Source: Acidobacteriota bacterium (GTDB lineage: Bacteria; Acidobacteriota; Thermoanaerobaculia; Multivoradales; UBA5704). From it: a stretch of DNA of 64,000 nucleotides. The notes beneath the pieces are model-generated. The model was not told the origin of the DNA and did not search any database. It was given only the letters and a program-made list of their open reading frames with translations. Position numbers and translations under genes: made by a program. Each line of letters opens with the position of its first letter. The first letter of the stretch is position 1. Location of the stretch: NCBI GenBank assembly GCA_040005235.1, contig JBDTZG010000009.1, positions 32,001 to 96,000 of the forward strand. Reading direction: 5' to 3'. Shown piece after piece: positions 1-28,579 of this stretch.

Positions 1-3000
1 ACCCGCGACATCAACTGGGTGGCGAGCAGCGAGTGCCCCCCTAGATCGAAAAAGCTCTGGTCGATCCCGACGCGCTCGACCCCGAGCAGGTCCGACCACA
101 GGCTCACCAGCACCTCCTCGAACGGTGTCCGGGGGAGGGCAACCGCCGCACCCCCTCCACCGGAAACCTCCTCCGGAGCCGGCAGCGCAGCGCGGTCGGT
201 CTTGCCGTTGCGGGTGAGCGGCAACTCGCGCAGCACCACGATCGCCGCGGGCACCATGTAATCGGGCAGCCGGCCACGGACCTGTTCGCGCAGCTCGGCG
301 CCGGTCGGCGGCGCTTTGGAATCGGAACGAGATGCCTGCTCGGTCCGCACGTCGGCTCGTGGGCTCGGCACGAAGGCGAGACCCCGGCGATGGGCGTACA
401 GATTGAAACGATCGGTGCCGACCAGCAGCTCGTCCTGCTCCACCGTCACCTCGAAACCCCTGGCTTCGAGGAAGCGACGCAGCTCTTTGCTACGCCCCTC
501 GCTCTCGCTGCCGGCTTCGTCGTGGACCTCCATCACCACCTGGGCCACCTTCGGCCAGTCCGTTTCCGCGAGCCCGGCCAGCACATCCATCTCCGCCCGC
601 TGGACGTCGATCTTTAGCAGGTCGATCCGCTCGACACCCTCTTCCTCGATGACGTCGGACAGCCTGCGCAGGCGGCATTCGATCTCCTCTCCGGCGAACC
701 GACCGGCGAGCAGGTCGTCCGCCTCGGCCAAGAGTGCGGTGGCGTGCGCAGAGCCCTTTTGCTCCTCGTTTCGCAGAAAGCGCTTGACCACCTCGACCTC
801 GTCCTCAGGCACCGCGTAGCCCGCGAGCCCGGACATCATCGAGTAGCGCGGGTAGTAGGTGAACCGCGCCGACTCCTCGCGCCGCGAAAGACCATGGCGA
901 AACAGACGAAACTCGATGCCCGCCGACGCGAGGTTCGCGCTCAAGGTCTCGAAGATCGGCCCGATCGGCTCGAAGGCGAACACCCGGGCACCGCGGCTGC
1001 GCTCGGCGACGAACAGCGAGAACATCCCGATGTTGGCTCCCACGTCGAAGACGCAGGCGTTCTCCGGCAATACGATGCCGTGCCGGACGTAGGTATCCTT
1101 CTCGAAGATCTCCTGGTACAGATATTCGGTCTCGTTTCGGTTCTGGTGAGCGACCCACAGGCCGTTCGGCAAGCGATGGCGCGGGCGGCCGGACGGAAGG
1201 CGCCGGCCCTCGCGGACCACCACGTAACCCACCAGGCGCTTCTCGCCGGACGCCTCGTCGCGCAGCACCACCACGGACTGATCCACCCCGGGACAGGCCG
1301 CAAGAGCCGCCTCGACCTCGCCGAGCTCGATCCGGAAACCGCGGATCTTGACCTGGTGGTCGGTTCGCCCGAGAAACTCCAGGTTGCCGTCGGGCAGATA
1401 GCGAACCAGATCGCCGGTGCGGTACAAGCGTTCCCCGGGGGCGGCACCGAACGAATCGGGAACGAATTTCTCGGCGGTCTGGCTCGGCCGGCCCAGGTAG
1501 CCGCGGGCGACTCCATCTCCCCCGACCCAGAGCTCTCCCGGCGCCTCATCGAGCGCGAGCGATCGGTCCGGAGTCACGACATAGAGGCGGACGTTGCCGA
1601 TCGCGCGGCCGATCGAAGGGTGAAGCGGCGCGCCGTCGATCCGGCAGACCGCGGCGTCGACGGTGCATTCGGTCGGGCCGTAGACATTGAAAAAAGGCTG
1701 GCCGGCCACCGCCGCAAGCTCGGCCCACAGGGCGGCGTCGATCGCCTCGCCGCCCACCAGGTAGCGGCGCGGCAGCGTCGGCGGCGCCGGGATCGAGAAG
1801 AGGCCGGCGGCGGCGAGCAACCGCAGCTGGGACGGCGTGCAGTCCAGGACATCGATCCTTTGCTCGGCGACGAAGCGCAGCAGCTCTTCGCCATCCGGCC
1901 GGACGTCATCCGGCACCAGGACCAGGCAGCGGCCGAACGTGAGCTGGACCCACTGTTTGACCGAAGCATCGAAGGTCAAAGGGGCGTTGACGCTCACCCT
2001 CAAAGCCTCGTCGCCCAGACCCGCATACACCGACCGCGCGAGCGCCCGCGAAAGGTTGACCACCGAGCGGTGGCGGATCATGACCCCTTTGGGGCGGCCC
2101 GTCGAACCCGAAGTGTAGAGCGCATAGGCGGCGTTTTCCGGCACCGCCAAAGCGGCCGGATCGCCGTCGGCCCAGGCACCGAGATCGGCACCCGGGGGGG
2201 TCTCCCCGTCGAGGACGAGCCATCGTGCGCGGCTCTCGGACGCCCGCGTCCCGAGCGCCGTCTGGGTCAAGACGATCGTCGCACCGGCGTCTGCCACCAT
2301 CGATTCCAGGCGCCCGCCGGGCTGGGAGGGATCGAGCGGCAGGTAGGCCCCTCCCGCTTTCAGGATGCCCAGGACCGCGACGATCTGGTCCACCGAACGC
2401 TCCAGGCAGAGGCCGACGAAGGATTCCGGCCCGACCCCGAGCGCCCGCAGCGCGTGCGCCAACCGGTTCGCTCGCCGGTTCAGCGCGCCGAAGCTCAAGC
2501 TCTCCCCTAGGAATGAGACCGCCGGAGCTTCCGGATGGAAAGCGGCGGCCGCCTCGAAAAGACTATGAACGCACGTCTCTCGCGGGTAATCGGCCGCCGT
2601 GGCGTTGCGCTCCTCAACGAGGAGTCTCCGCTCCGCCCTCGGCATGATCTCCAAGTCCCCCACCGCTCGGAGCGGATCCGCGGCCACGCTTGCGAGCAGC
2701 GTCTCGAAACGCTCCAGCAGCCGTTTCATCGCGCTCTGCCGATAGACCGCCGGGGCGTAGTGGAGGGTGAGCTCCAGCCCCTCGGGCGTGCGCTCTGCCG
2801 CGAGACGGAGTTTCATCGGCTCCAACTGCGACCGCCGGTGGCGAAGGGCAAAGCGGAGGTCCCCGACCCGGTGCTCCGCGCCGGCCGCACCCCGAAACTC
2901 GAATCCGACCGGAGACGCAGCCGGGGCTCCGGCGGCTTCCGACTGCCCGGCCCAAGAGAAGAAATCCTGGCGCGCGCAAGCGCTCGCGTCCGCCTCTCCG

Positions 3001-3914
3001 ATCAGGCTCACGGCTTCGGCGAAGGGAAAGTGCGGCTCCGGCGCGAAGCGCAGGGGAAGGTATTTCTCGAACAGCCCCAAGGCACCTTGCAGCGGCTCGA
3101 CGTTGCGCCCATCGGCCAGCCGCCAAACGGTGACCGGCACCCCGCCGCCGACGCGCCAAAGCAAGAGGCCCCAACCGGCGAGCAGGGTGACCGGCAAGGA
3201 CGCCGGTCGATCGAGCTTCGCGGCGAGGCCCTTGGGCAGCAGCACCGTGAACGCCCGGGTCTCGCCGCGGTCTCCCCCCGCCGCTCCCTCGAACGGGAGG
3301 CGGACCTCGGGGAATCCCGCCAGCGCCTCGCGCCGCCAGAACTCGCGTTCCTCAATGCCGTCGGGAGAGTCTAGAAGCTCGTTTTGCCACTCCGAAAAAT
3401 CGACGTACTGCACCACTTCCTCGTCGAAGTCGCCGCCGTCGAGCAAGGCGCCGTAGCAACGCGCGAGGTCCTGCGTCAGGATGTCGAGACTCCGAGCGTC
3501 GGCGCACAGGGCCGGCAGCGTGATCAACAGCAGATTTCGATCCGCGGCGAGCGGCGCGCAGGCGAAGCGAACGAGCGGCCCGCGCTCGAAGTCGAAAGGC
3601 TGCCGCCGCTCCTCTTCGAGCAGGGCACCGATCTCTCCGGGATCGACGTCGCGAACCTCCAGAGCGGCCTGCTCGCCGATCACCTGCACCGGAAGGTCCA
3701 TCCCGGGCAGGCGCTGAAAACTGGCGCGCAGGATCTCGTGGCGCTCCGCCATGTTCCGGACCGCCCTGGCCAGCAGCCCGCGGTCGAGCGGCCCGTCGAT
3801 CGCCAAGGCCCCCTGAACGCACAGGCCGGCGGTGCCTCCCGGCAACAGCCAGAGCCGTCTCTGCTGCGGCGACAGCCGAAACCCCTCGATCACCAGCTGC
3901 GTCGGCTCGCTCAT
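1..3914 (-). CDS. NRPS, partial (continues past the left edge): interface (I) domain - A domain (Glu code) interrupted by FkbM-type methyltransferase - T domain
   Basis: Missing from the ORF track because there is no stop in the window; translated by hand. ATG at 3914 overlaps the TGA of the dioxygenase. N-terminus [22 protein letters not shown]; C-family active site replaced by LPALCAD; A motifs [29 protein letters not shown] (code DAKDLGVVD); MT motif [18 protein letters not shown] at about 385-1180; T motif [11 protein letters not shown] at about 20-60. Confidence 0.93.
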
Positions 3915-4954
3915 GCGCCCTTCTCGACGTCCTTCCAGGCGAACGGCTCAGCCATGCCGACCACGACCTTGCGCGCGCCGGTAAAGGAGCTGCGCCCGTG
4001 CGCGACGAGCATGTTGTCGAGCAACAGCAGGTCGCCCCGCTCCCAAAGGAAGCTCACCGTCTCCGCCTCGTAAATGGCGCGCAGCTCGTCGAGAACGTCC
4101 GTTTCGATCGGCGTTCCATCGCCGTAGTAGGTGTTGTTGGGCAGATCCTCCTCCGCGTAGTTGCTCCGCATCGAATCGCGCAGATCCGGCGCCAGCGTGG
4201 TGACATGGAAGAAGGTCAGGTGGTTGAACCACGAGAAATCGCCGGAGCGCGGATGGCGGCCCCCGACCGAGCGCCGCTGGCGGGTGCACAGCCGCCCTTG
4301 GCCTTTCCACTCGAAATCGATTTCATGGTCGCGGCAGTACTGCTCGACGGTCCCCTCGTCCTCGGTGCGAAAGGCCTCCTGCCAGGAGAGCCCCAGGCCG
4401 TGCCCGAAATTCCGGGCGTAGAGGTAGCCCTTCTCCTGGAACGCCCGCCGGATCGCCGGGTCGATCTTCTGGAAGACCCGCCGACAATCGGCGATCGGCG
4501 TTTCGCCGCCGGTCTCTGCCGCGGTCAGGCAAAAGAAGGCGATGCGCAGCGGAAAGACCAGGTTGTAGGACTGCTCGTTGTGCAGGAAGATAGGATGCTC
4601 CGGCGGGTAGTCGGTCGAGGTGTAGACCTTGCCGCTCACCTGGCTGCGGGGAGACGACCGCTCCGTGTAGTCGAGAGCGCTGCCGTAGAGCGATCGCAAA
4701 ACTTCCTCGAACGCCTCGACCGAGGCGAGCGGGAAGCCGCGGAACAGGATCGCACCGTTCTTGAGCAGCGCCTGCTCGATGAAATCCCGGTTGGAGGCGG
4801 CCCACGAGACCAGGTTCAATCCCTCGGCTCGTGGTCGGATCACCAACGGGAAATCGCGTTCGCCGCCCAGGTTGCCGGTCTGGATCAGCTCGTCTTCCGA
4901 CAGGCGGACGGGCTGCCTCTTGCCGGAGCGGAATTTGTCGAAGCTCGTGGTCAT
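3911..4954 (-). CDS. TauD/SyrP-like Fe(II)/2-oxoglutarate dioxygenase (putative aminoacyl-S-PCP beta-hydroxylase)
   Basis: 347 aa; [14 protein letters not shown] (HxE facial triad), [15 protein letters not shown]; translationally coupled to the NRPS genes on both sides. Confidence 0.9.
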
Positions 4955-7900
4955 TGTTCGGGTTCCTCTCGACCGGCCGGCCGTGCCTCCACGGCGGGAG
5001 TCGCGCGCTTGGGTTTAAATCGATCCATCTTTTCCGCTTCCCGCCGCTTCTCCTCGGCCCCCTGCTCGGCGCGCTCGGCGGCGGTCCGCGTTTCGAGCGA
5101 GGAGAGCCGGGCGTCGGGCCGCTCTACGGCGTCACTAAGTAGTGCCTCGAACCGCCGTTCGAGCGACTCGATCGAAGCGAGATCGAAAAGCTCCGACCGC
5201 CAGGTCCAATCGAGGGTCAAGCCGAGATCGGCCTCACGGACCCAGACGGTGAGGTCGAAGCGCGCCGTCTCGGGCTCCGGCTCCAGCATCGTCAACCGCA
5301 GGCCGGGGAGCGCCAGGTCCTCCAGCGGCACGTTGTTCAAGCTGAACGCGATCCGCAGGAAAGGTGTCTGCAGCAGCTCCCGCCCCGGCCGCAGCTCTTG
5401 CACCAGCAGGTCGAAAGGGAGTTCTTGATGAGCGTAGGCGCCGAGCGCCGTGGTCCGAGCCCGGGCGAGCAGCTCGCGAAATTTCGGGTTTCCCGACAGA
5501 TCGGTGCGCATCGCCAACAGATTGACGAAGAAGCCGATCAAACCTTCCGTCTCCAGCCGATCGCGCCCGGCCGTTGCGGTTCCCACCACGACGTCCTCCA
5601 CCCCGGTCAGACGAGACAGAAGCGCCTGAAACCCCGCGAGGAGCGTCATGAACAGGGTGACGCCCTCGGTCCGGCTCAGGTCGCGGAGCCGGGCGGCGAG
5701 ATCCTCCGGCAGGACGAACGATCGACGCACCCCAACCTTCTCCGGCGTCTCCGTCGTCTCCGTCGGCCGCGGAAGGACCGCCGCCAGATCGATCACCGGC
5801 GGATCTCCCGCCAGCTGCTGTTTCCAGTAGAGCAGCTGGGCGGAGAGGGCCGCTCCCTGCAGCCATTCGCGCTGCCACGATGCGTAGTCCGCGTATTGGA
5901 TCGGAGGCTCTCCCAGCGGCGAGGGCAGCCCTTGGGAGAACGCCTCGTACAGGGCGGCCACCTCGCGGATGAAGACCCCGCTCGACCAGGCGTCGGTGAC
6001 GATGTGATGCAGGGTGAAGAGCAGCACGTGCTCTTGCCCGCCGAGGCGCAGCAGGCGGCATCTGAGCAACGGCCCGCGGCTCAGGTCGAAGATCCGCCGC
6101 GCCCCGTCGTCGAACGAGCGCCGCACTTCGCTCTCGCCTGAGCCGGCAGGAAGACTCGCGAGATCGACCACCGGCACGCACAGCGCCGCTGCAGGGGCGA
6201 TCCGCTGCACCGGCCTGCCGTCGATCTCCGGGAAACGGGTGCGCAGCACCTCGTGCCTTCGCACGACCTCACCGAGCGTTCGTGCCACCACCGGGAGGTC
6301 GAGGCGGCCGACCAGACGCAGGGCGCTCGGCGAGTTGTAGGCGGCCGAAGGATCGAGCCGGTCCACCAGCCAGAGGCGTTGCTGGGCGAACGAGAGCGGG
6401 AGATCTCGATCCCGCGCCGCGGGACGGATGGGAGGAGCCTCGGCCACCGCGGCGGCGATCCGCGACTCCAGATGGCTCGCGAGCTTGGCCACCGTCGGGT
6501 GATCCAGGAGGTCGCCGGGCATCAGCTCCGATCCGAGAGCCTTGCGGATGCGGGCGACCAGGCGCACCGCATGCATCGAGTGCCCGCCCAGCTCGAAGAA
6601 GTTGTCGTCGATGCCGATCTCCGGACGCTTCAACAAATCGCGCCATAGGCCGACCAGGGTCCGCTCCAGATCGGTTCGCGGCTCGGCCACCCCTGCCGCT
6701 TCGACCGCTTCGACCGCTCCGACGCCAACTGCGGCGGACGTCCAAGACTTGAGGATCTTGCGATCGACCTTGCCGTTTGCCGTGAGCGGCAGAGACTCGA
6801 CCCCGACGACGCTCGAAGGGACCATGTGCTCCGGCAGATCGAGACGGAGGAAGTCGCGGAGCTTCCCCGGCAACGCTTCAAGGTCGATCCCCGGCCGGGC
6901 GACGACGAAAGCCGCGAGGCTGGCATCGGCCCCTTCGTCGCGCACCACGACCGCCACCTCCAGAAGCGCCGGGTGGCGAACCAGTACCGCTTCGATCTCC
7001 CCCAGCTCGATCCGGAACCCTCGAACCTTCACCTGGGTATCGAAACGTCCGAGAAAATCCAACACGCCGTCCGGCCGACGGCGCGCCAGGTCTCCGGTCC
7101 GGTACAACCGCGCTCCGGGCTGCCGACCGTGAGGGTGAGGAACGAAGGCGGCGGCGGTCAAAGCCGGCCGCCCGAGATAGCCGCGGGCGAGACCCTCGCC
7201 GCCGACCGCAAGCTCGCCGGCGATACCCACCGGGGCTAGACCTCCGCCGGGCTCCAGCACGTACAGCTCGGTCCGGTCGATCGGACGGCCGATCGGTACC
7301 GGACCCGCCAGTGCATCGTCCCCCGGGATCTCATGGACCGCACAGCCGACCACCGTCTCGGTGGGACCGTATTCGTTGATCAGGCGGGTCTCCGGCGCGT
7401 CGCGTCGCCATTCCGCGAGGCTGCCTCCGTGCAGCGCCTCGCCGCCGACGATCAGCACGCGCGTGGCGCCGGCCCGTTCGTCACCCCCGAGCTGTTGCCG
7501 GAGCACGTCCAAGTGGGCCGGGGTGAGCTTGACCAGGCCGAAGTCGGGTTTGCCAAGGAAGACCTTCGCCAGCTCGCCGCCGACGGGTGATCCGGCGAGC
7601 AGCGTGACCGGCCGGCCGGCGAGCAGCGGCAAAAGAAGGCTGGTGAGCGTGAGATCGAAACCGATCGGCGAATAGGCCGGAGCGCCGGCACCTTCCGCCG
7701 CCCGGTAGGCTTCGCCCGCCCAGCGCAGATAGTTGTCGAGGCCGCGCCGGGGGATCATCACCCCCTTCGGCCGCCCGGTCGATCCGGAGGTGTAGAGGAC
7801 GTACGCGAGATGCTCGCCCGCGTCGGCAGCGTCCACCCGTTCGGCAGCCACGGGCAAGCCGGCGATCCGGTCCCAATCCGCATCGAGGCACAACAGCTGT

Positions 7901-10900
7901 GGAGCGGTCGTGCCCCCCTGCGGCAGTCGGCTCGCGAGCCGTTCGTTGGTCAACAGCCAGGCGGCGCCGCTGTCCGTGATCATGTAGGCCAGCCGTTCGG
8001 CGGGGTAGTCCGGTTCGAGCGGCACGAACGAGGCTCCCGCTCCGAGGATGCCGAAGAGCGCGACGAGCAGCTCCGGCGTCCGTTCGAAGAAGACACCGAC
8101 CCTCGCCTCGGGACCGACGCCCTGGGCTCGCAGGTAAGAGGCCAGGCGCACGGCGCGAGAGTGAAGCTCGGCGAACGACATCCGCCGATTCTCGAAAATG
8201 AGGGCGACCGCCGCGGGATCGGCGGCGGCCACGGCGCTCAGCCGCGCGAGCAGGGTGCCCGCGGTCGCCGGGCCGGGACGCGAGGTGTCGTTCCACTCCG
8301 ATCGCAGCTGGTGCAGCTCGGCTCCCCGCGCCAGAGGCAGCTCCGAAATCCGCCGGCCGGGGTCGGCGCCGATCTGCCGGAGAAGGTTTCCGAAGTGCGT
8401 CAACAGGCGCAGGATCGTGGTCCGGTCGAACAGATCGGTGGCGTATTCGAGCGCACACGTCAAGGCGCCGTACGAGTCCTCGACCAGTGCCAGGTGCAGG
8501 TCGAATTTGGCCGTCCCGGTCGCAACCTCGATCGGCTCCAGGGTCAGACCCGGAAGCTGAATCGCGAAAGCCGGCACGTTTTGCAGCGCCAGCCAGGCGC
8601 TGAACAGGGGCGACGGGCTTGCCACGCCCTCCGGCTGCAGCTCCTCCACCAGCTTTTCAAACGGCAGGTCCGGATGGGCATACGCCGCCAATGCCGCCTC
8701 GCGTGTCCGCCGCAGCTGCTCATGGAAGCTGGGGTTCCCGACAAGGTCGGCCCGAAACACCAGGGTATTGACGAAGAATCCGATCAGCGGCTCGATCTCG
8801 GGCCGGTTGCGGCCGGCGATCGGCGAACCGACCGTCAAATCCTCCTGCCCGGTGTAACGGTAGAGCAGAGTCTGGAAGCCGGCGAGCAGAACCATGAACA
8901 GGGTTGCCCGGTCCGCGCGGGTGAGCGCATATAGAGCCGCCACCGCCGCGGGCTCCAACCGGGCGACTTCGGTCGCGCCGCGCATCGTTCGGCCCGGCGG
9001 GCGCGGCCGGTCGATCGGCAGGTCGAGGGTCGATCGAGCCCCGGCCAGCCGGGAGCGCCAGAACCCGAGCATCGCTTCGAGGTTCTCGCCCGCGAGGCCG
9101 CGCCGCTGCCAGACCGCAAAGTCCGGATATTGAATCGGCAGATCGGGAAGGCGCGGCTTGGCGCCCGCCGCCAGGGCGCTGTAGATCTCGCCCAGCTCCC
9201 GGATCAGAATGCCGAACGACCACCCGTCGCTCACGATGTGGTGCATCGACGCCGAGAGGACATGCTCGCGTTCGCCGAGGCGAAGCAGCGAGAGCCGCAG
9301 CAGCGGCCCCTGGCGCAGGTCGAAGCTCCAACTGCTCGCCTCGGTCCACCGGCGAGCCCCCTCCCGCTCCCTTTCGCGCCGCGCCAGGCGGGCCAGGTCG
9401 ATCAGCGGCAACGCCATCGGCGCGGCCTGCTCGACCACCTGGATCGGCGTCTCGCGCCCCGCGTGGAACGTGGTGCGCAGCGATTCGTGGCGGGCGACGA
9501 TCGCGGTGAAGCTGTCGCGCAGCGCGGCGACGTTCAACGCTCCCGTCAACCGGAACGCCCCGGGGATGACATAAGCCAGGTTGCCCGGGTCCATCTGGTC
9601 GAGCAGCCAGAGCCGCTGCTGCGGAAACGACAGCGGCAGCTCACCGTCCCTCGGGCTCGCGACCAACGGCGGCAGCGGCAGGCCCTCCTGCACCCGCATC
9701 TCGTGCTCGACCCGCTGCGCGGTTTCGGCGATCGTCGGGCTTTCGAACAGCGTGCGCAGCGGCAGATCGACTCGAAACGTCTCCCGCAGCCGCGAGATCA
9801 CCTGGGTGAGGAGCAGCGAGTGCCCCCCCAGGAGGAAGAAGTTGCCATCCACCCGGATCCGCTCCAGGCCCAGAACCTCGCACCAGATGCCGGCGACTAG
9901 CTCTTCGACCGGCGTATAGGGCCGGTCGAAGCTCTCTTCGTCCGGCGGCGCGGCGTCCGGTTCCGGTAGGGCGGAGCGGTCGATCTTGCCGCTCGCGGTG
10001 CGCGGCAGAGCGTCGAGGAGCACGAAGGTGGAAGGAATCATCGGTGCCGGCAGCTTCTTGTCGAGAAATCCGCGTAGCGTCGTCGGGGTGGCCTCGCGCC
10101 GTTCCAGCAACCCGTTCTCGGCCGTTCGTCTGCCCGCGCGCCGTTCGAACCAGGCGGGGCGAACGGCGTAGACGTTGAACAGGCCGGCCCCCCGGAACCG
10201 GGCGTCCTCCTCGGCCACCACCGTGTAGCCCTGGTCCCGCAGCAGGGTCTCGACCGCCTCCAGCCGGCCGTCGGCCGCGTGCAGCTCGACGACGATCTGG
10301 CCGATCTTCGGCCAGTCCTCGGCGCGGATGCCGCAAAGAACGTCCAGCTCGCTTTTTTCGACGTCGATCTTGAGCAGGTCGATGCGGGCCAGCCCCTCCT
10401 CGACGAGGACGTCCGAGACGGTGCGCAGCGGGACCGAGAAGCTCTCGGCTTCGAACCGTCCGCTCAGCAGCTCGTCGGCATAGCGGGCGAGGTCGGCATC
10501 CTGGCTTTCCAGCGAGGCGCGCGCCACCCTCTCGTCCTCGGCCAGGTCGGCATACAGCCCGGACATCGCCGACCAGCGCGGATAGAAGGTGAAGACCGCT
10601 TCCCTCGGCGCGTCGGCCAGGCCGCAGTTGAACAGCTTGGCCTCCAGGCCGTACAAGCCGACGTTGCTCTCCAGGCGTTTGAAGACCGCGGGCACCGGCT
10701 CGAACGCGAACACCTTCGGGTTCTTGGCGCGCTGGTGCGCAAAAAGGGTGAACAGGCCGATGTTGGCTCCGACGTCGAACACGCAGTCGCCGTCGGCGAG
10801 ATTCACGCCGTGCCGCAGATAGACCTCGTCTTCGAAGATCTCCCGGAAGATGAGCACGGCTTCGTTGCGGTTGAGGTGGGCGATCTCCATGCCGTTCGGC

Positions 10901-13650
10901 AGAAGGAGCAGCTCGCCGGCCTCCGAGCCGAGGTCGCGGCGGGTGGCGACGTAGGCCACCAGACGAGGGTTTCCGGCCTCGCCGCGAAGGGCGACCACGG
11001 CGTCCCGGACGCCGGGATGAAGACGTAGCGCCGCCTCGATCTCTCCCAGCTCGATCCGGAAACCGCGCACCTTCACCTGATGGTCGATGCGCCCCAGGTA
11101 CTCGACAGCTCCGTCGAGCCTCCGGCGGGCGAGGTCACCGGTCCGGTAGAGACGCTCCCCCGGCCGCTCCGCGAGGGGGTCGGGAACGAAGCGCTCGGCG
11201 GTCAGGTCGGGGCGTCCCAGGTAGCCGCGCGCCAGCCCGATGCCGGCGATCGCCACCTCGCCCGCCGCTCCGGCCGGGACCGGCCACAGCCCGGCGTCGT
11301 ACAGCGACACCCTGACGTTGTCGATCGGCCGGCCGATCGGCACCGGGCTCTCGCCGCTCTCCCGCCGAAGCGGCCAAAAGCTGGCGTCGATCGAGCTTTC
11401 GGTCGGTCCGTAGAGGTTGCACAAGGCGACGCCGGTGAGGAGCTCGAAGAACCGGTCCCGAAGATCGGCCGGCAGCGCCTCGCCACCGCAGTAGACCCGG
11501 CGCAGCGCGCTCAAGCTTGAGAGCCCCGGCTCTTCGAGAATCACCCGCAGCTGCGAGGGCACCCATTGCAGGACGGTGATCTCCTGCTCGGCGATCGCGC
11601 GGATCAGATAGGAGTTGTCTCGTTGGCCGTCGGGGCGGGCCAGGAACAGCCCGGCACCGGTCGCGAGCGGCAGAAAGATCTCCCAGATCGAGGCATCGAA
11701 AGTGAACGTCGTCTTCTGCAGAACCCGATCGTCCGCGGCGAGCGGGAAACGCCTCTGCATCCACAGCAGCCGATTGACGATCGCGGCGTGCGCGACCGCC
11801 ACCCCTTTGGGCCGCCCGGAAGAGCCCGAGGTATAGATGACATAGGCCAGATTCGCGGGATCGACGGCCCCGTTCCGGCCGCTCCGGCCACTTCGGCCGC
11901 CTCCTTGCGACAGGTCCACTCGATCGAGGTCGAGCACCTCGTTTCCGGCCCGGACCGAGAGTCGTGCCAGCCATTCCGAGCGGGTCAAGACGAGGCGAGG
12001 ATCGGCATCCTGCACCAGTTGGGCGAGACGCTCCTCGGGATGGCTTGGATCGAGGGGCAGATAAGCCGCCCCCGCACGCAGCGTACCGAGCAGCGCCACC
12101 ACCATCTCAAGCCCGCGCTCCAGGCAGATGCCGACCAACGTGTCCGGTCCGGCTCCGCGCGACCGCAGGATCTCGGCCAGGCGGACCGTCCGTCGATCCA
12201 GCTCGGCGTAGGTCAGGCTCGCTCCGTCGGCCTCCACCGCGATGCGCTCAGGGGTCCGCTCGGCCTGGGCGGCAAACAGCCCCGGCAGAGTCTCCGCCGA
12301 GGGCTCGACCGAAGTGTCGTTCAGCTCCCGGACCAGGCGGTGCCGCTCCACTTCGCCGACCAGGGCGAGATCGCCGATCAGAGCGCCGGGCGCGGCGGCA
12401 ACGCTGATCAGAAGGGCTTCGAGCTGCAGCGCCCAACGCCGAACTTCGACGAGCGAGAAGACCGCGGCATCGAAAGCGAAGCGGAGCGCCAGGGAGTCGC
12501 CGCCAGCCCGGCACGAGAGCTTGAGGCGGAACGGTTCGCTCCACGCCTGGCGGGCGACCACCGTGAACGTGACTCCAGAAACTTCCTCCGCAGGCCCGAA
12601 CGGCTTCTCCATCTCAAAGCCGTAGGTCTGAACGAGCTCCTGCGGGTTCTCGTCGCGCGCCGCGAGGGCCTGCCAATCGAGAAACCGTTGCATCTCGAAG
12701 GCGACGCCAAGGGTTCGCCGAACCTGCCGCAAAACACTCTGCAAGGTGCCGGAGCTTTCCAGCCGCCAGGCCAGGGGCAGGAACCGCACCAGAGGTCCCA
12801 CCGTGGCGGCCAGCTCCTGGTAGTCGCGACCGTCGAAGGCCACCCCCACCGACAGATCCTGCCGATCGACCAGGCGGCCCAGGAAGACGACCCAGCAGGC
12901 CAGGAGCAGATCGGACAGCTCCGCCCCTTCCGCCTGCGCGATCGAGCGCAGCTTCGCGAGCGCCGGAGCCCCGAGCGCAAAGTCGAACTCCTGCGGCAGG
13001 AAGCGGCCTTTCCCCGCCTCGGCCCCGGGAGGAAACGGCGCCTCGATCACCGACGTCCGTTCGAACCAATATCCCCGTTCCGCGAGGGTCTCTTCCCCTT
13101 CGAGCAGGCTGTTCTGCCAGGTCGAAAGATCAGCGTACTGGACCGGCGGCTCCGCCTCCGGATCGAGCGCGCCCGCCCCACGATACGAACCGACGATCTC
13201 CCGCACCAGGTTGTCCAGGCCCGCCAGGTCCGAGCAGAGCGCCGGCAAGGCGAGCCGGAGCAGGCGCTCCCCAGGCTCCACTCCGATCGACGAGACCCGT
13301 AGGACCGGGCCGTCCTCCAGGTCGAACGGCAGCGCCTCCTGCGTCCGGAGCCACTCAGCGAGCTTCGCGCTCCGCTCCTGCGGCGTCCGATCCGCCCGGG
13401 GCTCGGTCACGACCTGGAGCGGCCAGGACATCCCGGGCAGCGAGCGGAAGACCGTGCGCAAGATCTCGTGCCGTTCGACGGTGCTCTGGATCGCCGCCGC
13501 GAGCCGTTCCTCGTCGAGCGCTCCCGCGACGCGAACCAAGACCTGCGCGCTCCCCAACCCTGCGCGCCAAGCCCAGGCCCTCGCCTGCTGAGGCGAGAGG
13601 GAAAAGCCGTGCAAGGTCGGCTGCATTGCGGTTTCGATCTCTGTGATCAT
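4951..13650 (-). CDS. NRPS: I - A(Gln-like; FkbM-MT inserted) - T - C - A(Asn) - T - C
   Basis: 2899 aa. N-terminal GFSLSPQQARAW...LPALCSD (no HHxxxDG); A1 code DAWQYGLID; [22 protein letters not shown] at about 10160-10910; T GGHSL; C HHIVSDGWS; A2 code DLTKIGEVG; T GGHSM; terminal C HHIVTDAWS. AGAGGA RBS upstream. Confidence 0.95.
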   Translation of the reverse strand: MITEIETAMQPTLHGFSLSPQQARAWAWRAGLGSAQVLVRVAGALDEERLAAAIQSTVERHEILRTVFRSLPGMSWPLQVVTEPRADRTPQERSAKLAEWLRTQEALPFDLEDGPVLRVSSIGVEPGERLLRLALPALCSDLAGLDNLVREIVGSYRGAGALDPEAEPPVQYADLSTWQNSLLEGEETLAERGYWFERTSVIEAPFPPGAEAGKGRFLPQEFDFALGAPALAKLRSIAQAEGAELSDLLLACWVVFLGRLVDRQDLSVGVAFDGRDYQELAATVGPLVRFLPLAWRLESSGTLQSVLRQVRRTLGVAFEMQRFLDWQALAARDENPQELVQTYGFEMEKPFGPAEEVSGVTFTVVARQAWSEPFRLKLSCRAGGDSLALRFAFDAAVFSLVEVRRWALQLEALLISVAAAPGALIGDLALVGEVERHRLVRELNDTSVEPSAETLPGLFAAQAERTPERIAVEADGASLTYAELDRRTVRLAEILRSRGAGPDTLVGICLERGLEMVVALLGTLRAGAAYLPLDPSHPEERLAQLVQDADPRLVLTRSEWLARLSVRAGNEVLDLDRVDLSQGGGRSGRSGRNGAVDPANLAYVIYTSGSSGRPKGVAVAHAAIVNRLLWMQRRFPLAADDRVLQKTTFTFDASIWEIFLPLATGAGLFLARPDGQRDNSYLIRAIAEQEITVLQWVPSQLRVILEEPGLSSLSALRRVYCGGEALPADLRDRFFELLTGVALCNLYGPTESSIDASFWPLRRESGESPVPIGRPIDNVRVSLYDAGLWPVPAGAAGEVAIAGIGLARGYLGRPDLTAERFVPDPLAERPGERLYRTGDLARRRLDGAVEYLGRIDHQVKVRGFRIELGEIEAALRLHPGVRDAVVALRGEAGNPRLVAYVATRRDLGSEAGELLLLPNGMEIAHLNRNEAVLIFREIFEDEVYLRHGVNLADGDCVFDVGANIGLFTLFAHQRAKNPKVFAFEPVPAVFKRLESNVGLYGLEAKLFNCGLADAPREAVFTFYPRWSAMSGLYADLAEDERVARASLESQDADLARYADELLSGRFEAESFSVPLRTVSDVLVEEGLARIDLLKIDVEKSELDVLCGIRAEDWPKIGQIVVELHAADGRLEAVETLLRDQGYTVVAEEDARFRGAGLFNVYAVRPAWFERRAGRRTAENGLLERREATPTTLRGFLDKKLPAPMIPSTFVLLDALPRTASGKIDRSALPEPDAAPPDEESFDRPYTPVEELVAGIWCEVLGLERIRVDGNFFLLGGHSLLLTQVISRLRETFRVDLPLRTLFESPTIAETAQRVEHEMRVQEGLPLPPLVASPRDGELPLSFPQQRLWLLDQMDPGNLAYVIPGAFRLTGALNVAALRDSFTAIVARHESLRTTFHAGRETPIQVVEQAAPMALPLIDLARLARREREREGARRWTEASSWSFDLRQGPLLRLSLLRLGEREHVLSASMHHIVSDGWSFGILIRELGEIYSALAAGAKPRLPDLPIQYPDFAVWQRRGLAGENLEAMLGFWRSRLAGARSTLDLPIDRPRPPGRTMRGATEVARLEPAAVAALYALTRADRATLFMVLLAGFQTLLYRYTGQEDLTVGSPIAGRNRPEIEPLIGFFVNTLVFRADLVGNPSFHEQLRRTREAALAAYAHPDLPFEKLVEELQPEGVASPSPLFSAWLALQNVPAFAIQLPGLTLEPIEVATGTAKFDLHLALVEDSYGALTCALEYATDLFDRTTILRLLTHFGNLLRQIGADPGRRISELPLARGAELHQLRSEWNDTSRPGPATAGTLLARLSAVAAADPAAVALIFENRRMSFAELHSRAVRLASYLRAQGVGPEARVGVFFERTPELLVALFGILGAGASFVPLEPDYPAERLAYMITDSGAAWLLTNERLASRLPQGGTTAPQLLCLDADWDRIAGLPVAAERVDAADAGEHLAYVLYTSGSTGRPKGVMIPRRGLDNYLRWAGEAYRAAEGAGAPAYSPIGFDLTLTSLLLPLLAGRPVTLLAGSPVGGELAKVFLGKPDFGLVKLTPAHLDVLRQQLGGDERAGATRVLIVGGEALHGGSLAEWRRDAPETRLINEYGPTETVVGCAVHEIPGDDALAGPVPIGRPIDRTELYVLEPGGGLAPVGIAGELAVGGEGLARGYLGRPALTAAAFVPHPHGRQPGARLYRTGDLARRRPDGVLDFLGRFDTQVKVRGFRIELGEIEAVLVRHPALLEVAVVVRDEGADASLAAFVVARPGIDLEALPGKLRDFLRLDLPEHMVPSSVVGVESLPLTANGKVDRKILKSWTSAAVGVGAVEAVEAAGVAEPRTDLERTLVGLWRDLLKRPEIGIDDNFFELGGHSMHAVRLVARIRKALGSELMPGDLLDHPTVAKLASHLESRIAAAVAEAPPIRPAARDRDLPLSFAQQRLWLVDRLDPSAAYNSPSALRLVGRLDLPVVARTLGEVVRRHEVLRTRFPEIDGRPVQRIAPAAALCVPVVDLASLPAGSGESEVRRSFDDGARRIFDLSRGPLLRCRLLRLGGQEHVLLFTLHHIVTDAWSSGVFIREVAALYEAFSQGLPSPLGEPPIQYADYASWQREWLQGAALSAQLLYWKQQLAGDPPVIDLAAVLPRPTETTETPEKVGVRRSFVLPEDLAARLRDLSRTEGVTLFMTLLAGFQALLSRLTGVEDVVVGTATAGRDRLETEGLIGFFVNLLAMRTDLSGNPKFRELLARARTTALGAYAHQELPFDLLVQELRPGRELLQTPFLRIAFSLNNVPLEDLALPGLRLTMLEPEPETARFDLTVWVREADLGLTLDWTWRSELFDLASIESLERRFEALLSDAVERPDARLSSLETRTAAERAEQGAEEKRREAEKMDRFKPKRATPAVEARPAGREEPEQ

Positions 13651-13656
13651 CGTCCT

Positions 13657-26896
<13,240 letters not shown>

Positions 26897-26907
<11 letters not shown>

Positions 26908-28579
26908 GAGCCCCGGCGACCGCAGCCCATTCGTGGCGCGTTAGGTCCGACTCGACCTGACCGAAGTCGAGCTTGATGATGCGGTCCGCGATCTGGAAAT
27001 AGCGATCATCATGAGAAATGACGAAAACCGTCTTGCCCCGCCGTTGCAGGCCTGGAAGCAGCTCAGTGTAGAAAACCTCCTTGAAGAATGGGTCTTGATC
27101 CGCGGCCCACTCATCGAATAGATAAAGGGGGCGATCCTCAAGATAGGCGGTCAAGAGTGCCAATCGCTTGCGTTGGCCCTGAGAAAGCTCGACCGTGGAC
27201 AGGCGCCCTTCCTCGACACGAACTTTTGACTCAAGCTTGAGCAGCTCAATGTAGTGCTGAGCATCGCCGGCAAATGACTCCGACCGCGTCAAGCCCAGGA
27301 ATTCCTCAAAGAGGAAGAAATCGGAAAAGACGGCTGAAAACCGCTCTCGGTACTGCTCGCGGCTCTCGTCTGTCACCTTCACGCCACCGATCGTGATACT
27401 GCCCGCCTCGGGGGAATACAGACCGAGGAGCAGCTTTGCAAGCGTGGTCTTCCCGCTGCCGTTGCCACCTACGATAAACACCAATTCGCCCCGGCGGAAC
27501 TTGAGATCCAGCGGCCCGAGGAGAAAGCTCTCGTCGTTTTCCCGCCGGTAGGTGTGACTCACTCCTTCCAGGTCGAGGGACTGCCAGAGGGGGTCGTCCA
27601 CCACACTTTGCGCTGCGGGCGCAGACTCCGACTTCAAAGAGAAGCCGAGCGCCTCGACCTTCCGTGTTGCGACGCTGGCACGCGAAAGGTTCGGGAACGC
27701 GTTGAGAAGCACTTCGAGCGGCACCATCAGTTGGAAGAGAATGATGGTGTAGCCCGAAAGGACCTTGGTGCCCAGTGGCTGAAATCGCGGCATCACCAGC
27801 ACCACCGCGCCGATCACCAAGAAGAACATCACTTGCCCCCAGCTTGACGTTGCGGCGAGCAGGACCTGACCCGAGCGATTCTCCTTCAAGAGAGCCGCGG
27901 TGCTCTCTTTGACCGAACCCAGGAAGGCGAGGCGGCGTTCCCGATGCATCTTCAACTCTTTCATCCCCTCCACCATCGAGCGGACCTGCCCCAAGACCTC
28001 GTCCAACCGATGGCGAGAGCGGGTGAAGTAGACAAATGCCTTTCTCACTGCGAGCTGATAGCTGCCAATCCCGATCACCACGACTACCATCAACTGAATC
28101 AAGACTCGCCAATCAAGCCATCCCAAATAGGCGAAGCAACTCATCACTACGGTGAAATGCATTATCAACACCGGCACGATACTCAGCGTATCGACAATCG
28201 TGCCGATGTCAACGGCAAGAGTGGCGAGTAGTTTCGCCGAACCAATCGTCTCAATTTGCCGCAGCGGCGCTTCGAGCACCCGGCGGGAATAGCGCATGCG
28301 CAGTTCGAGCAGGGCACTCTGAGACATTTTGATCAGCATAAGTTGTGCAACAAAACGCGCGACCGGCAATCCTATACAGAGAGCCGCAAAACTGAATACC
28401 AGCTTTAGCGGAGCGCTGCCCCCAGCCGAAATAATCGAATTGATCAGCGCGATCATCCCGGTAGCGGCGAGACCGCTGGCGGTCCCCGCGACTACGACCA
28501 GGAAGAGCGACAGCCGCAAATTCGGGATCTGCCCCGAGAGTCGCAGGACGAACTTCAAGAGCTGAGTTAGATCCCGCAT
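26897..28579 (-). CDS. Cyclic/lipopeptide export ABC transporter (SyrD/PvdE/YojI family), fused TMD-ATPase
   Basis: 560 aa; hydrophobic N-half; Walker A GGNGSGKTT; signature LSQGQRKRL; family hallmark FDEWAADQDP; ISHDD. Confidence 0.93.

Follow-up and report, generated by a model that had tools for sequence, protein, structure and literature searches.

The window analysed here, a stretch of 64 kb of contig JBDTZG010000009.1 from an Acidobacteriota bacterium, has a G+C content of about 68% and carries a nonribosomal peptide synthetase (NRPS) gene cluster. Our subject is a module type that occurs twice in the window, I-A(M)-T, which consists of a condensation-like domain without the HHxxxDG motif (HH-less or interface-like, I), an adenylation (A) domain interrupted by an FkbM-type methyltransferase (M) domain, and a thiolation (T) domain. 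Within the window every gene of the cluster lies on the minus strand, and the order of transcription is ABC transporter, NRPS-A, NRPS-B, TauD1 and NRPS-C; the two modules begin NRPS-B and NRPS-C, and the gene of the TauD-type dioxygenase TauD1 lies between them. The coordinates of NRPS-B, TauD1 and NRPS-C overlap by a few bases at the junctions, so that the three genes are translationally coupled in an operon-like arrangement.

The domain map was drawn from Pfam and from phmmer searches with the line's own domains, and Stachelhaus positions were extracted by alignment. NRPS-B (4951-13650, 2899 amino acids (aa)) starts with its condensation-like I domain (12310..13635), in which LPALCSD (13228-13248, residues 135-141) occupies the HHxxxDG site. 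The interrupted A domain (9931..12276) follows, with the Gln-like code DAWQYGLID and a type II/FkbM M insert at 10072-10932, and then the first T domain (9676..9900, Ser1278), which belongs to the same module; the remainder of the protein (4951..9645) is organized as C-A(DLTKIGEVG, Asn-like)-T-C, and its terminal condensation (C) domain (5065-6408) bears HHIVTDA. On this protein Pfam matched Condensation three times, AMP-binding twice, PP-binding twice and Methyltransf_21/FkbM once (residues 959-1143, E 4.6e-19). TauD1 (3911-4954) is an Fe(II)/2-oxoglutarate dioxygenase of 347 aa (PF02668, E 9.6e-47). NRPS-C (3-3914, continuing past the window; 2896 aa in full) is organized as I-A(M)(DAKDLGVVD)-T-C-A(DLTKVGHVG, Asp-like)-T-E, where E is an epimerization domain. 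Its I-like domain lies at 2595..3914 (LPALCAD at 3498-3518, residues 133-139), its interrupted A domain at 150..2558 (a Glu code, with a type II/FkbM M insert at 300-1190) and the start of its T domain at 3..113, the remainder being outside the window; the Pfam matches were Condensation (residues 13-432, E 1.1e-43), AMP-binding and FkbM (residues 957-1155, E 2.2e-17). NRPS-A, the protein before the first I module, also ends in an intact C domain (13789-15120, HHIISDA), which is the condensation partner of that module.

A sequence-only reading of this DNA had singled out these two modules, and its account of the layout, namely the two HH-less starts, the intact C domain at the end of each preceding protein, the dioxygenase gene in between, the FkbM-type insertion between motifs A8 and A9 and the two A codes, was borne out, with inserts somewhat wider than it had placed them (about 10160-10910 and 385-1180). 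Its statement that only these two modules carry such an insert is true of the window but not of the contig, on which a third was found at the start of NRPS-F, together with a second TauD gene. NRPS-F (more than 3931 aa, truncated by the contig end) is organized as I-A(M)(DAKDLGVVD)-T-C-A(DIWEITADD)-T-C-A(DIFHFGLII)-T-C..., with LPAVCSD at the HHxxxDG site, and TauD2 (346 aa, PF02668, E 6.8e-49) lies directly before it; both are outside the window, at G000:C91:2-12876.

Each of the three I-like domains comes after a subunit with a His-bearing terminal C domain. A FastTree phylogeny was computed from 114 C-like domains, namely those of the entire line, of each third hit and of eight selected hits. 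In it a branch with support 100 set apart 49 HH-less N-terminal domains as one group, with 56 canonical C and E domains lying outside. The hits had been chosen by likeness to the query I domain, and therefore the unity of the clade is partly built in, whereas its separation from the canonical domains is not. Clustering with active C or E domains, which the sequence-only reading had named as an outcome fatal to its proposal, was thus not seen against the canonical C and E domains, and the N-terminal domains of NRPS-B, NRPS-C and NRPS-F appear, by sequence, to belong to a clade that does not include these proteins' own canonical C and E domains. Bit scores gave the same picture: the I domain reached at best 91.5 bits against the solved C domains in the PDB, an ordinary C domain of the line reached 337 bits, and PDB 8z0q, a 'special condensation domain', scored 244.6 bits to canonical C vs 72.6 bits to the I domain. 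No solved interface domain stood out in the PDB search with the I domain, and a protein atlas search returned only the label 'condensation domain'. A homologue search in which 8000 candidates were scored yielded 477 proteins at E <1e-5. Among the best 120 of them, the named proteins were mostly from metagenome-assembled genomes of Acidobacteriota lineages, the motif (L/V)xLP(A/S)LCAD recurred, the A codes next to the I domain were Asp-, Asn-, Glu-, Gln- and His-like, and PF05050 was present in 23 proteins and a fused TauD domain in 8.

The M domain inserts between A8 (... RLVAYV) and A9/A10 (LPxxMxP ... GKxDR), and the PF05050 and TIGR01444 matches fall inside the insert. As far as the available text of Lundy et al. 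(2020) describes them, interrupted A domains carry six types of M domain, of which type II (KtzH, ColG) lies between a8 and a9, measures 290 +/- 13 aa and has six motifs (i-vi, including DVGx(N/H)xG), and the members tested O-methylate Ser. In our three modules the inserts are 287-297 aa long, and all six type II motifs, written as loosened regular expressions, were found in each of the M domains of NRPS-B, NRPS-C and NRPS-F; an NCBIfam search returned only generic NRPS and FkbM names. These data support the assignment of the three M domains to the O-methylating type II kind. Methylation of nitrogen, at the alpha-amine or at a side-chain amide, would have a precedent in EreM, an FkbM-family enzyme that acts on backbone amides, but among the FkbM-family proteins of MIBiG 2.0, in the published overview available to us, one is an N-methyltransferase, as against 29 documented or inferred O-methyltransferases. 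According to the published descriptions at hand, the M domains of N-methylating interrupted A domains are of type I or V and differ in motifs and size, whereas all six O-methylating type II motifs are present here, and we regard N-methylation as very improbable. Identity between the M domains of NRPS-B and NRPS-C is 42%, and between those of NRPS-F and NRPS-C it is 72%; the three are not recent copies of one another. FkbM itself acts on the 31-OH of the FK506 macrolide, carrier-bound O-methylation in that system being the work of FkbG, so the statement in the sequence-only reading that FkbM methylates a carrier-bound hydroxyacyl group looks wrong.

Seven FkbM-family matches were found in the whole genome, and the only three in NRPS genes are those of the I-A(M)-T modules. 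The codes of these modules (DAWQYGLID, and DAKDLGVVD twice) differ from the DVWH.. and DFWN.. codes of Ser and Thr modules; that is, we did not find at them a residue that brings its own beta hydroxyl. In this they depart from KtzH(A4) of the kutznerides and ColG of the columbamides (family 2a), which have the same insertion site between a8 and a9, the same six motifs and the same insert length, but which activate Ser with its native hydroxyl, need no hydroxylase and stand behind a canonical C domain, whereas Glu- and Gln-like codes and an I-like domain are found here. In a tree of M domains, the I-associated ones on Asn-, Asp- and His-coded modules were intermixed with those on Ser- and Thr-coded modules, and therefore M domains on non-hydroxylated substrates are ordinary members of the O-methylating type II group. 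The M domain of NRPS-B fell among a few Gln-coded ones (a clade of 8 rows with support 98), and those of NRPS-C and NRPS-F in a large Glu clade.

We surveyed the relatives of the M domain by an exhaustive HMMER search with that of NRPS-C, which gave 1827 cluster representatives at E <1e-30, and analysed the best 150 of these plus five own or earlier proteins. With Glu-like codes, the domain upstream was HH-less in 65 cases, a His-bearing C domain in 1 and unaligned in 11, and 6 had no upstream domain. With Ser/Thr codes the same counts were 0, 5, 3 and 2; with Asp codes 2, 2, 4 and 2; with Gln codes 2, 0, 0 and 2; and with His-like codes 1, 0, 0 and 0. For another 32 M domains the protein was too truncated for scoring. 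Glu-coded I modules make up the great majority of the nearest 150 representatives, and the I-A(M)-T module type is common, with at least 65 cases among these 150. I and M domains are also found together where the code is Gln, Asn-like or His-like, and there the M motifs are for the most part preserved. Nine Glu-coded I modules from metagenomes (P0036, P0039, P0048, P0049, P0074, P0131, P0132, P0133 and P0137) have two type II M domains in tandem in one A domain, an arrangement that calls for two methyl acceptors per residue, such as a hydroxyl and a carboxylate or two hydroxyls.

Such M domains are present in 12 of 401 sampled genomes of the phylum (a tally that includes G000 and G152), and gene context was inspected for eight of the 12. 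A genome of the same order, G176, has the arrangement TauD, I-A(M)-T-C, TauD, I-A-T..., a genome of the same family (G357) has a Ser module with M behind a canonical C domain, and G209 has two Thr modules with M. In G137 (L038:7746-11641) the gene after a TauD gene encodes a separate A(M)-T protein of 927 aa (code SSRDLAMGI) with neither an I nor a C domain in front, which resembles the cassette in a free-standing form. Two M-domain matches contain in-frame TGA codons, one in G357:C1:1219191-1219982 and three in G176:C23:70207-71031, and may be decayed copies. The plasmid matches that we inspected were Ser-coded (Eleftheria terrae) or otherwise coded (Rhizobium), behind a canonical C domain and with no TauD nearby, and one Burkholderia plasmid match lay in an unannotated stretch.

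Both TauD proteins of the contig, which are 46% identical to each other, keep the iron triad H125, E127 and H319, invariant in all six aligned TauD sequences. A TauD gene adjoins the I-A(M)-T module in two of the three cases on the contig. Among the M-domain relatives, nine proteins have a TauD domain fused at the C-terminal end, behind the last C domain, one of them (P0045) being I-A(Gln)(M)-T-C-TauD; the site of fusion corresponds to the position of the free-standing TauD genes on this contig. A PDB search gave no characterised close structure for TauD. When the NRPS-C I domain and TauD1 were submitted to complex prediction, the score was 0.41, with a best control of 0.00; the runs agreed in at least 87% of contacts, and the partner pLDDT (predicted local distance difference test) was at least 83. 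Of 80 solved complexes 58 reach the mark of 0.41, as do 2 of 110 mismatched pairs, although scores at 0.60 or under that reached it came from only 7 of the 80 solved complexes and from both of the passing mismatched pairs. The predicted binding of TauD1 by the NRPS-C I domain thus has weak support. A third TauD paralogue of the genome (G000:C56:165393-166622, 53% identical to TauD1) lies outside the NRPS clusters, among ABC-transporter, solute-binding-protein and Hsp33 genes.

The sequence-only reading knew of no characterised pathway with this architecture. One exists: AmbB, then AmbC and AmbD, then AmbE, of the pathway to AMB (L-2-amino-4-methoxy-trans-3-butenoate) in Pseudomonas aeruginosa, has the same layout on Glu. 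As published, in the portions available, AmbB is A-T-C, AmbC and AmbD are TauD-type Fe/2-oxoglutarate oxygenases, and AmbE is Q-A-MT-T1-C-T2-TE, with an N-terminal stretch of 461 aa of unknown function (Q). In that description AmbC and AmbD hydroxylate C3 and C4 of Glu-S-T1 and the MT domain methylates the 4-OH, all before the AmbB C domain condenses, and a special C domain then dehydrates. The likeness is extensive: the upstream subunit ends in C, one or more dioxygenase genes lie between the subunits, and the following subunit opens with a non-catalytic domain of some 450 aa, after which come a Glu-activating A domain, interrupted ahead of Lys517 by about 300 aa, and T. For AMB it is published that Glu-S-T is hydroxylated in trans and O-methylated in cis before condensation, and we propose the same here.

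We compared AmbE with our proteins by its published layout and landmark residues rather than by sequence. In NRPS-F the Asp, Lys and T Ser landmarks are at 668, 1254 and 1311, in NRPS-C at 649, 1238 and 1295, and in NRPS-B at 652, 1222 and 1278; the published AmbE landmarks agree with them to within 8 to 25 residues. The spacing from Asp to Lys is about 282 in an uninterrupted A domain. In NRPS-F it is 586, exactly as in AmbE, where the published positions in the available text are Asp 644, Lys 1230 and T1 Ser 1286; we infer that D644 and K1230 are the equivalents of Asp235 and Lys517. Four metagenomic proteins of about 2100 aa (P0250, P0276, P0277 and P0215), drawn from the matches to the M domain and the relatives of these, have the AmbE architecture, Q-A(FkbM)-T-C-T-TE; Pfam gave A, FkbM, T, C, T and TE in two of them, and phmmer reproduced this order in all four as far as the second T. 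In P0276 (2124 aa) the landmarks are 3-4 residues off the published AmbE numbers. The N-terminal domain of three of the four scored 30-45 bits with the I domain vs less than 10 bits with canonical C, that of the fourth had no match to the I domain, and all four Q domains joined the I clade (53 rows, support 98) in a FastTree tree that came with a long-branch warning. Judging from these relatives, the Q domain of AmbE is probably a diverged I domain and its MT domain probably a type II M domain, and AMB-like pathways apparently occur outside Pseudomonas as well. No protein named AmbE was among the best 120 in a homologue search with the full length of P0250, and a metagenome scan with P0276 gave no match.

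The two systems also differ. AMB uses two hydroxylases, for C3 and C4, as compared with one TauD per junction here, and AMB biosynthesis methylates the 4-OH, dehydrates and decarboxylates via the special C domain and releases a dipeptide, whereas our line has an ordinary downstream C domain and three such modules among at least 14, one of them Gln-like in its code; AmbE's dehydrating C domain, T2 and TE have no match here. The downstream C domain scored 337 bits to Txo1 vs 76.6 bits to the AmbE dehydrating C domain, and since the downstream C domains are ordinary the methoxy residue should persist in the product. For the same reason we rejected an AMB-like use of the methoxy or hydroxy group as a handle for dehydration.

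Taken together, these data best support a mechanism in which the Glu and Gln modules are served by hydroxylation in trans and then by O-methylation of the new hydroxyl in cis, and we hold it to be slightly more probable than all else combined. The A domain would load Gln or Glu onto T, the Fe/2-oxoglutarate dioxygenase of the TauD type encoded at the junction would hydroxylate the tethered residue in trans, and the M domain would O-methylate the new hydroxyl in cis with S-adenosylmethionine. The upstream C domain would then condense the peptide onto the modified residue, and the ordinary downstream C domain would pass it on, so that methoxy-Glu or methoxy-Gln stays in the lipopeptide. The sequence-only reading had proposed the same division of labour, and the HH-less clade, the TauD genes at or fused to the junctions between C and I and the type II M domains agree with it; the architecture itself has its precedent in AMB.

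The position of the hydroxyl is a separate matter. Given O-methylation of a new hydroxyl, we clearly favour C3 (beta) over C4, because modules with I and M on Asn and Asp have only the beta carbon and because a beta hydroxyl is the native target of type II M domains. The same logic could operate at C4, as in AmbE, with the TauD acting on the gamma carbon or the M domain on a gamma hydroxyl, and would give 4-methoxy-Glu or 4-methoxy-Gln. AmbE, as described, is the only characterised Glu module of such a layout and methylates the 4-OH; the M domains of the four AmbE-architecture proteins score 181-195 bits to that of NRPS-B (phmmer query P0001, residues 907-1193), the two of them in the M-domain tree are both within the large Glu clade, and their Q domains, as noted above, join the I clade. 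Still, AMB employs AmbC for C3 and AmbD for C4, and a single TauD is found per junction here; I and M domains on Asn-like and Asp codes leave only the beta carbon to hydroxylate; in the descriptions at hand the beta hydroxyl of Ser is the target of characterised type II M domains; and the other carrier-dependent TauD hydroxylases, in the available text of the myxoglucamide and cystobactamid papers, act at the beta carbon. We therefore consider the C4 route unlikely.

Several observations weigh against hydroxylation followed by O-methylation at the beta carbon. Domain order, motifs, codes and relatives were observed, and every chemical step is inferred; the substrate names for the A codes are assignments by likeness to known codes rather than predictor output. 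The beta position and the placement of the methyl on a new hydroxyl are proposals, the 4-OH being the site in AmbE and an M domain being kept in Asp modules of genomes without TauD. There are only two TauD genes for three modules, and the junction before NRPS-B is without one. The association of I and M among the nearest relatives is largely inherited and therefore does not amount to many independent trials, and one relative, P0139, has an Asn-like M module behind a His-bearing C domain.

To the same side belongs a second large NRPS cluster of the genome, on contig C132 (about 32000-101400), which bears three more I-like domains, each at a subunit start, before the codes DAWQFGLID (Gln), DVWHISLVD (Ser) and DLTKVGEVG (Asn). 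There is no M domain in these modules and no TauD anywhere on the 106-kb contig, and therefore an I-like domain is no sure sign of hydroxylation. These domains suggest that the HH-less domain might be only a docking scaffold at the split between C and A, the dioxygenase finding the T-bound substrate unaided. I-like domains start six subunits in the genome, and all three on the contig of the window (C91) come after a subunit ending in C; three of the six lack a TauD on their contig, and one of these is Ser-coded. In addition, the available text of a 2026 paper on myxoglucamide, whose MxgA/MxgB system is C-Ox followed by I-A(Glu)-T and in which OxMxgA makes beta-OH-Glu, describes the I domain of MxgB as dispensable in vitro for the beta-hydroxylation of Glu, and in G137 a TauD lies beside an A(M)-T protein without an I domain. 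The same paper, however, reports that the glidomide I domain is indispensable for GlmF. TauD is fused or adjacent at many junctions of C and I, and the complex prediction above also speaks, weakly, for contact between I and TauD1. A mere scaffold is therefore rather doubtful in our view, though less so than action at C4. The I-like domain before the Ser-coded module on C132 is odd for a role in hydroxylase recruitment.

Further counter-evidence comes from G322, G174 and G194, which have an Asp-coded (DLTK(V/I)GHVG) A(M) domain behind a canonical C domain, and from G038, which has one at the start of an open reading frame (L034, L035, L036 and L039). Neither a PF02668 match nor a relative of TauD1 was found in these four genomes, which are 94-100% complete. 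A type II M domain can therefore act on a target not produced by a TauD, for which the side-chain carboxylate is possibly the obvious candidate; the modules hint at formation of an Asp beta-methyl ester, or at a hydroxylase of another kind. Applied to our modules, the M domain would form a side-chain methyl ester (Glu gamma-COOMe), with hydroxylation by TauD independent or absent, and the tandem M domains on Glu-coded relatives, which suggest two methyl acceptors, fit this as well. The same M type, with motifs largely kept, is nevertheless found on Gln-like (NRPS-B), Asn-like and His-like modules, which offer no side-chain carboxylate, and this argues against an ester as what it generally makes in I modules. 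In the tree, the neighbours of the NRPS-B M domain are likewise Gln-coded (the 8 rows with support 98 mentioned above), and hydroxyls are what the characterised type II M domains methylate, as far as published accounts available to us go. We judge ester formation to be unlikely here, about as much so as the C4 route.

Hydroxylation in trans and O-methylation in cis also has partial counterparts elsewhere. Interface domains reportedly accompany stand-alone TauD-type beta-hydroxylases in siderophore NRPSs. The siderophore, GlmF and MxgA/MxgB systems share with ours an HH-less C-like domain after C at a subunit break and have a TauD adjacent or fused to the upstream C domain, as is the case (adjacent) for two of our three modules, but they have no M domain in A; the clade of our domains was set by motif, placement and our own tree. 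In cystobactamid biosynthesis, as described in the available text, CysH is A-AMDH-T, and the hydroxylase CysJ and CysQ, an O-methyltransferase, give carrier-bound beta-methoxy-Asn. Hydroxylation and then O-methylation on a carrier is common to both, whereas cystobactamid uses a separate methyltransferase, an Asn substrate, no I domain and a shuttle protein that delivers the unit. AmbE-type logic, the type II M domain and the I domain were known already; what is apparently new is their use three times in one long lipopeptide line, once with a Gln-like code.

It is conceivable, though we would put it somewhat short of even, that I-A(M)-T with a junction TauD is a portable cassette for hydroxylation and O-methylation on Glu, Gln, Asn, Asp and His, leading to an unseen class of beta-methoxy lipopeptides in uncultured soil phyla. 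That class would include 3-methoxy-Glu and 3-methoxy-Gln, for which no natural product was found in the literature searched. That literature, with most subscription journals and supplements outside its scope, gave for methoxy-Glu and methoxy-Gln only the AMB intermediate, besides an unrelated cyanobacterial paper; for methoxy-Asp and methoxy-Asn, by titles, it gave mainly cystobactamid, coralmycin and albicidin, with a daptomycin-related lipopeptide review and marine peptide reviews. A methoxy-Glu or methoxy-Gln residue that is only a hidden intermediate in AMB biosynthesis would here, on our reading, be kept, three times, in a long lipopeptide. Because the module type is abundant, the characterisation of one module would annotate hundreds of orphan clusters, and it would give the unexplained Q domain of AmbE a family. 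A general role of interface domains in recruiting hydroxylases, cast into doubt by the 2026 study of myxoglucamide, would be put to the test as well.

The remaining subunits place the modules in their line, which by its domain content appears to be a lipopeptide NRPS primed by FAAL (fatty acyl-AMP ligase); the window holds its first part, and the contig holds six subunits with at least 14 modules, incomplete at the contig end. NRPS-A (13657..26907, 4416 aa) is FAAL-T-C(starter)-A(DLFNNALTY)-T-C-A(DFWNIGMVH)-T-C-A(DVWHVSLVD)-T-C. Outside the window, on the same contig, are NRPS-D (L002:4745-11428, minus strand, 2227 aa from a GTG start), C-A(DAWTCAAVC)-T-C-A(DAEHIGAIT)-T, and NRPS-E (2623 aa), C-A(DAWQFGLID)-T-C-A(DIWEITADD)-T-C. 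From the Stachelhaus codes, the product is presumably, in rough terms, acyl-Ala-Thr-Ser-Gln-Asn-Glu-D-Asp-Phe-like-X-Gln-X-Glu-X-X..., the first Gln and both Glu being the residues of the modified modules. The first C domain of NRPS-D (residues 85-520), which comes after the E domain of NRPS-C, has PQLLLDG in place of HHxxxDG, yet its neighbours in the tree are ordinary DCL-type C domains. Either it condenses without the histidines, or it is a dead link in the line. At the other end, an ABC transporter gene (26897..28579, minus strand) with transmembrane and ATPase domains overlaps the start of NRPS-A and likely encodes the exporter. Beyond it are the housekeeping genes hemA, hemC, HMG-CoA reductase and hypD, and the NRPS cluster therefore starts at the transporter.

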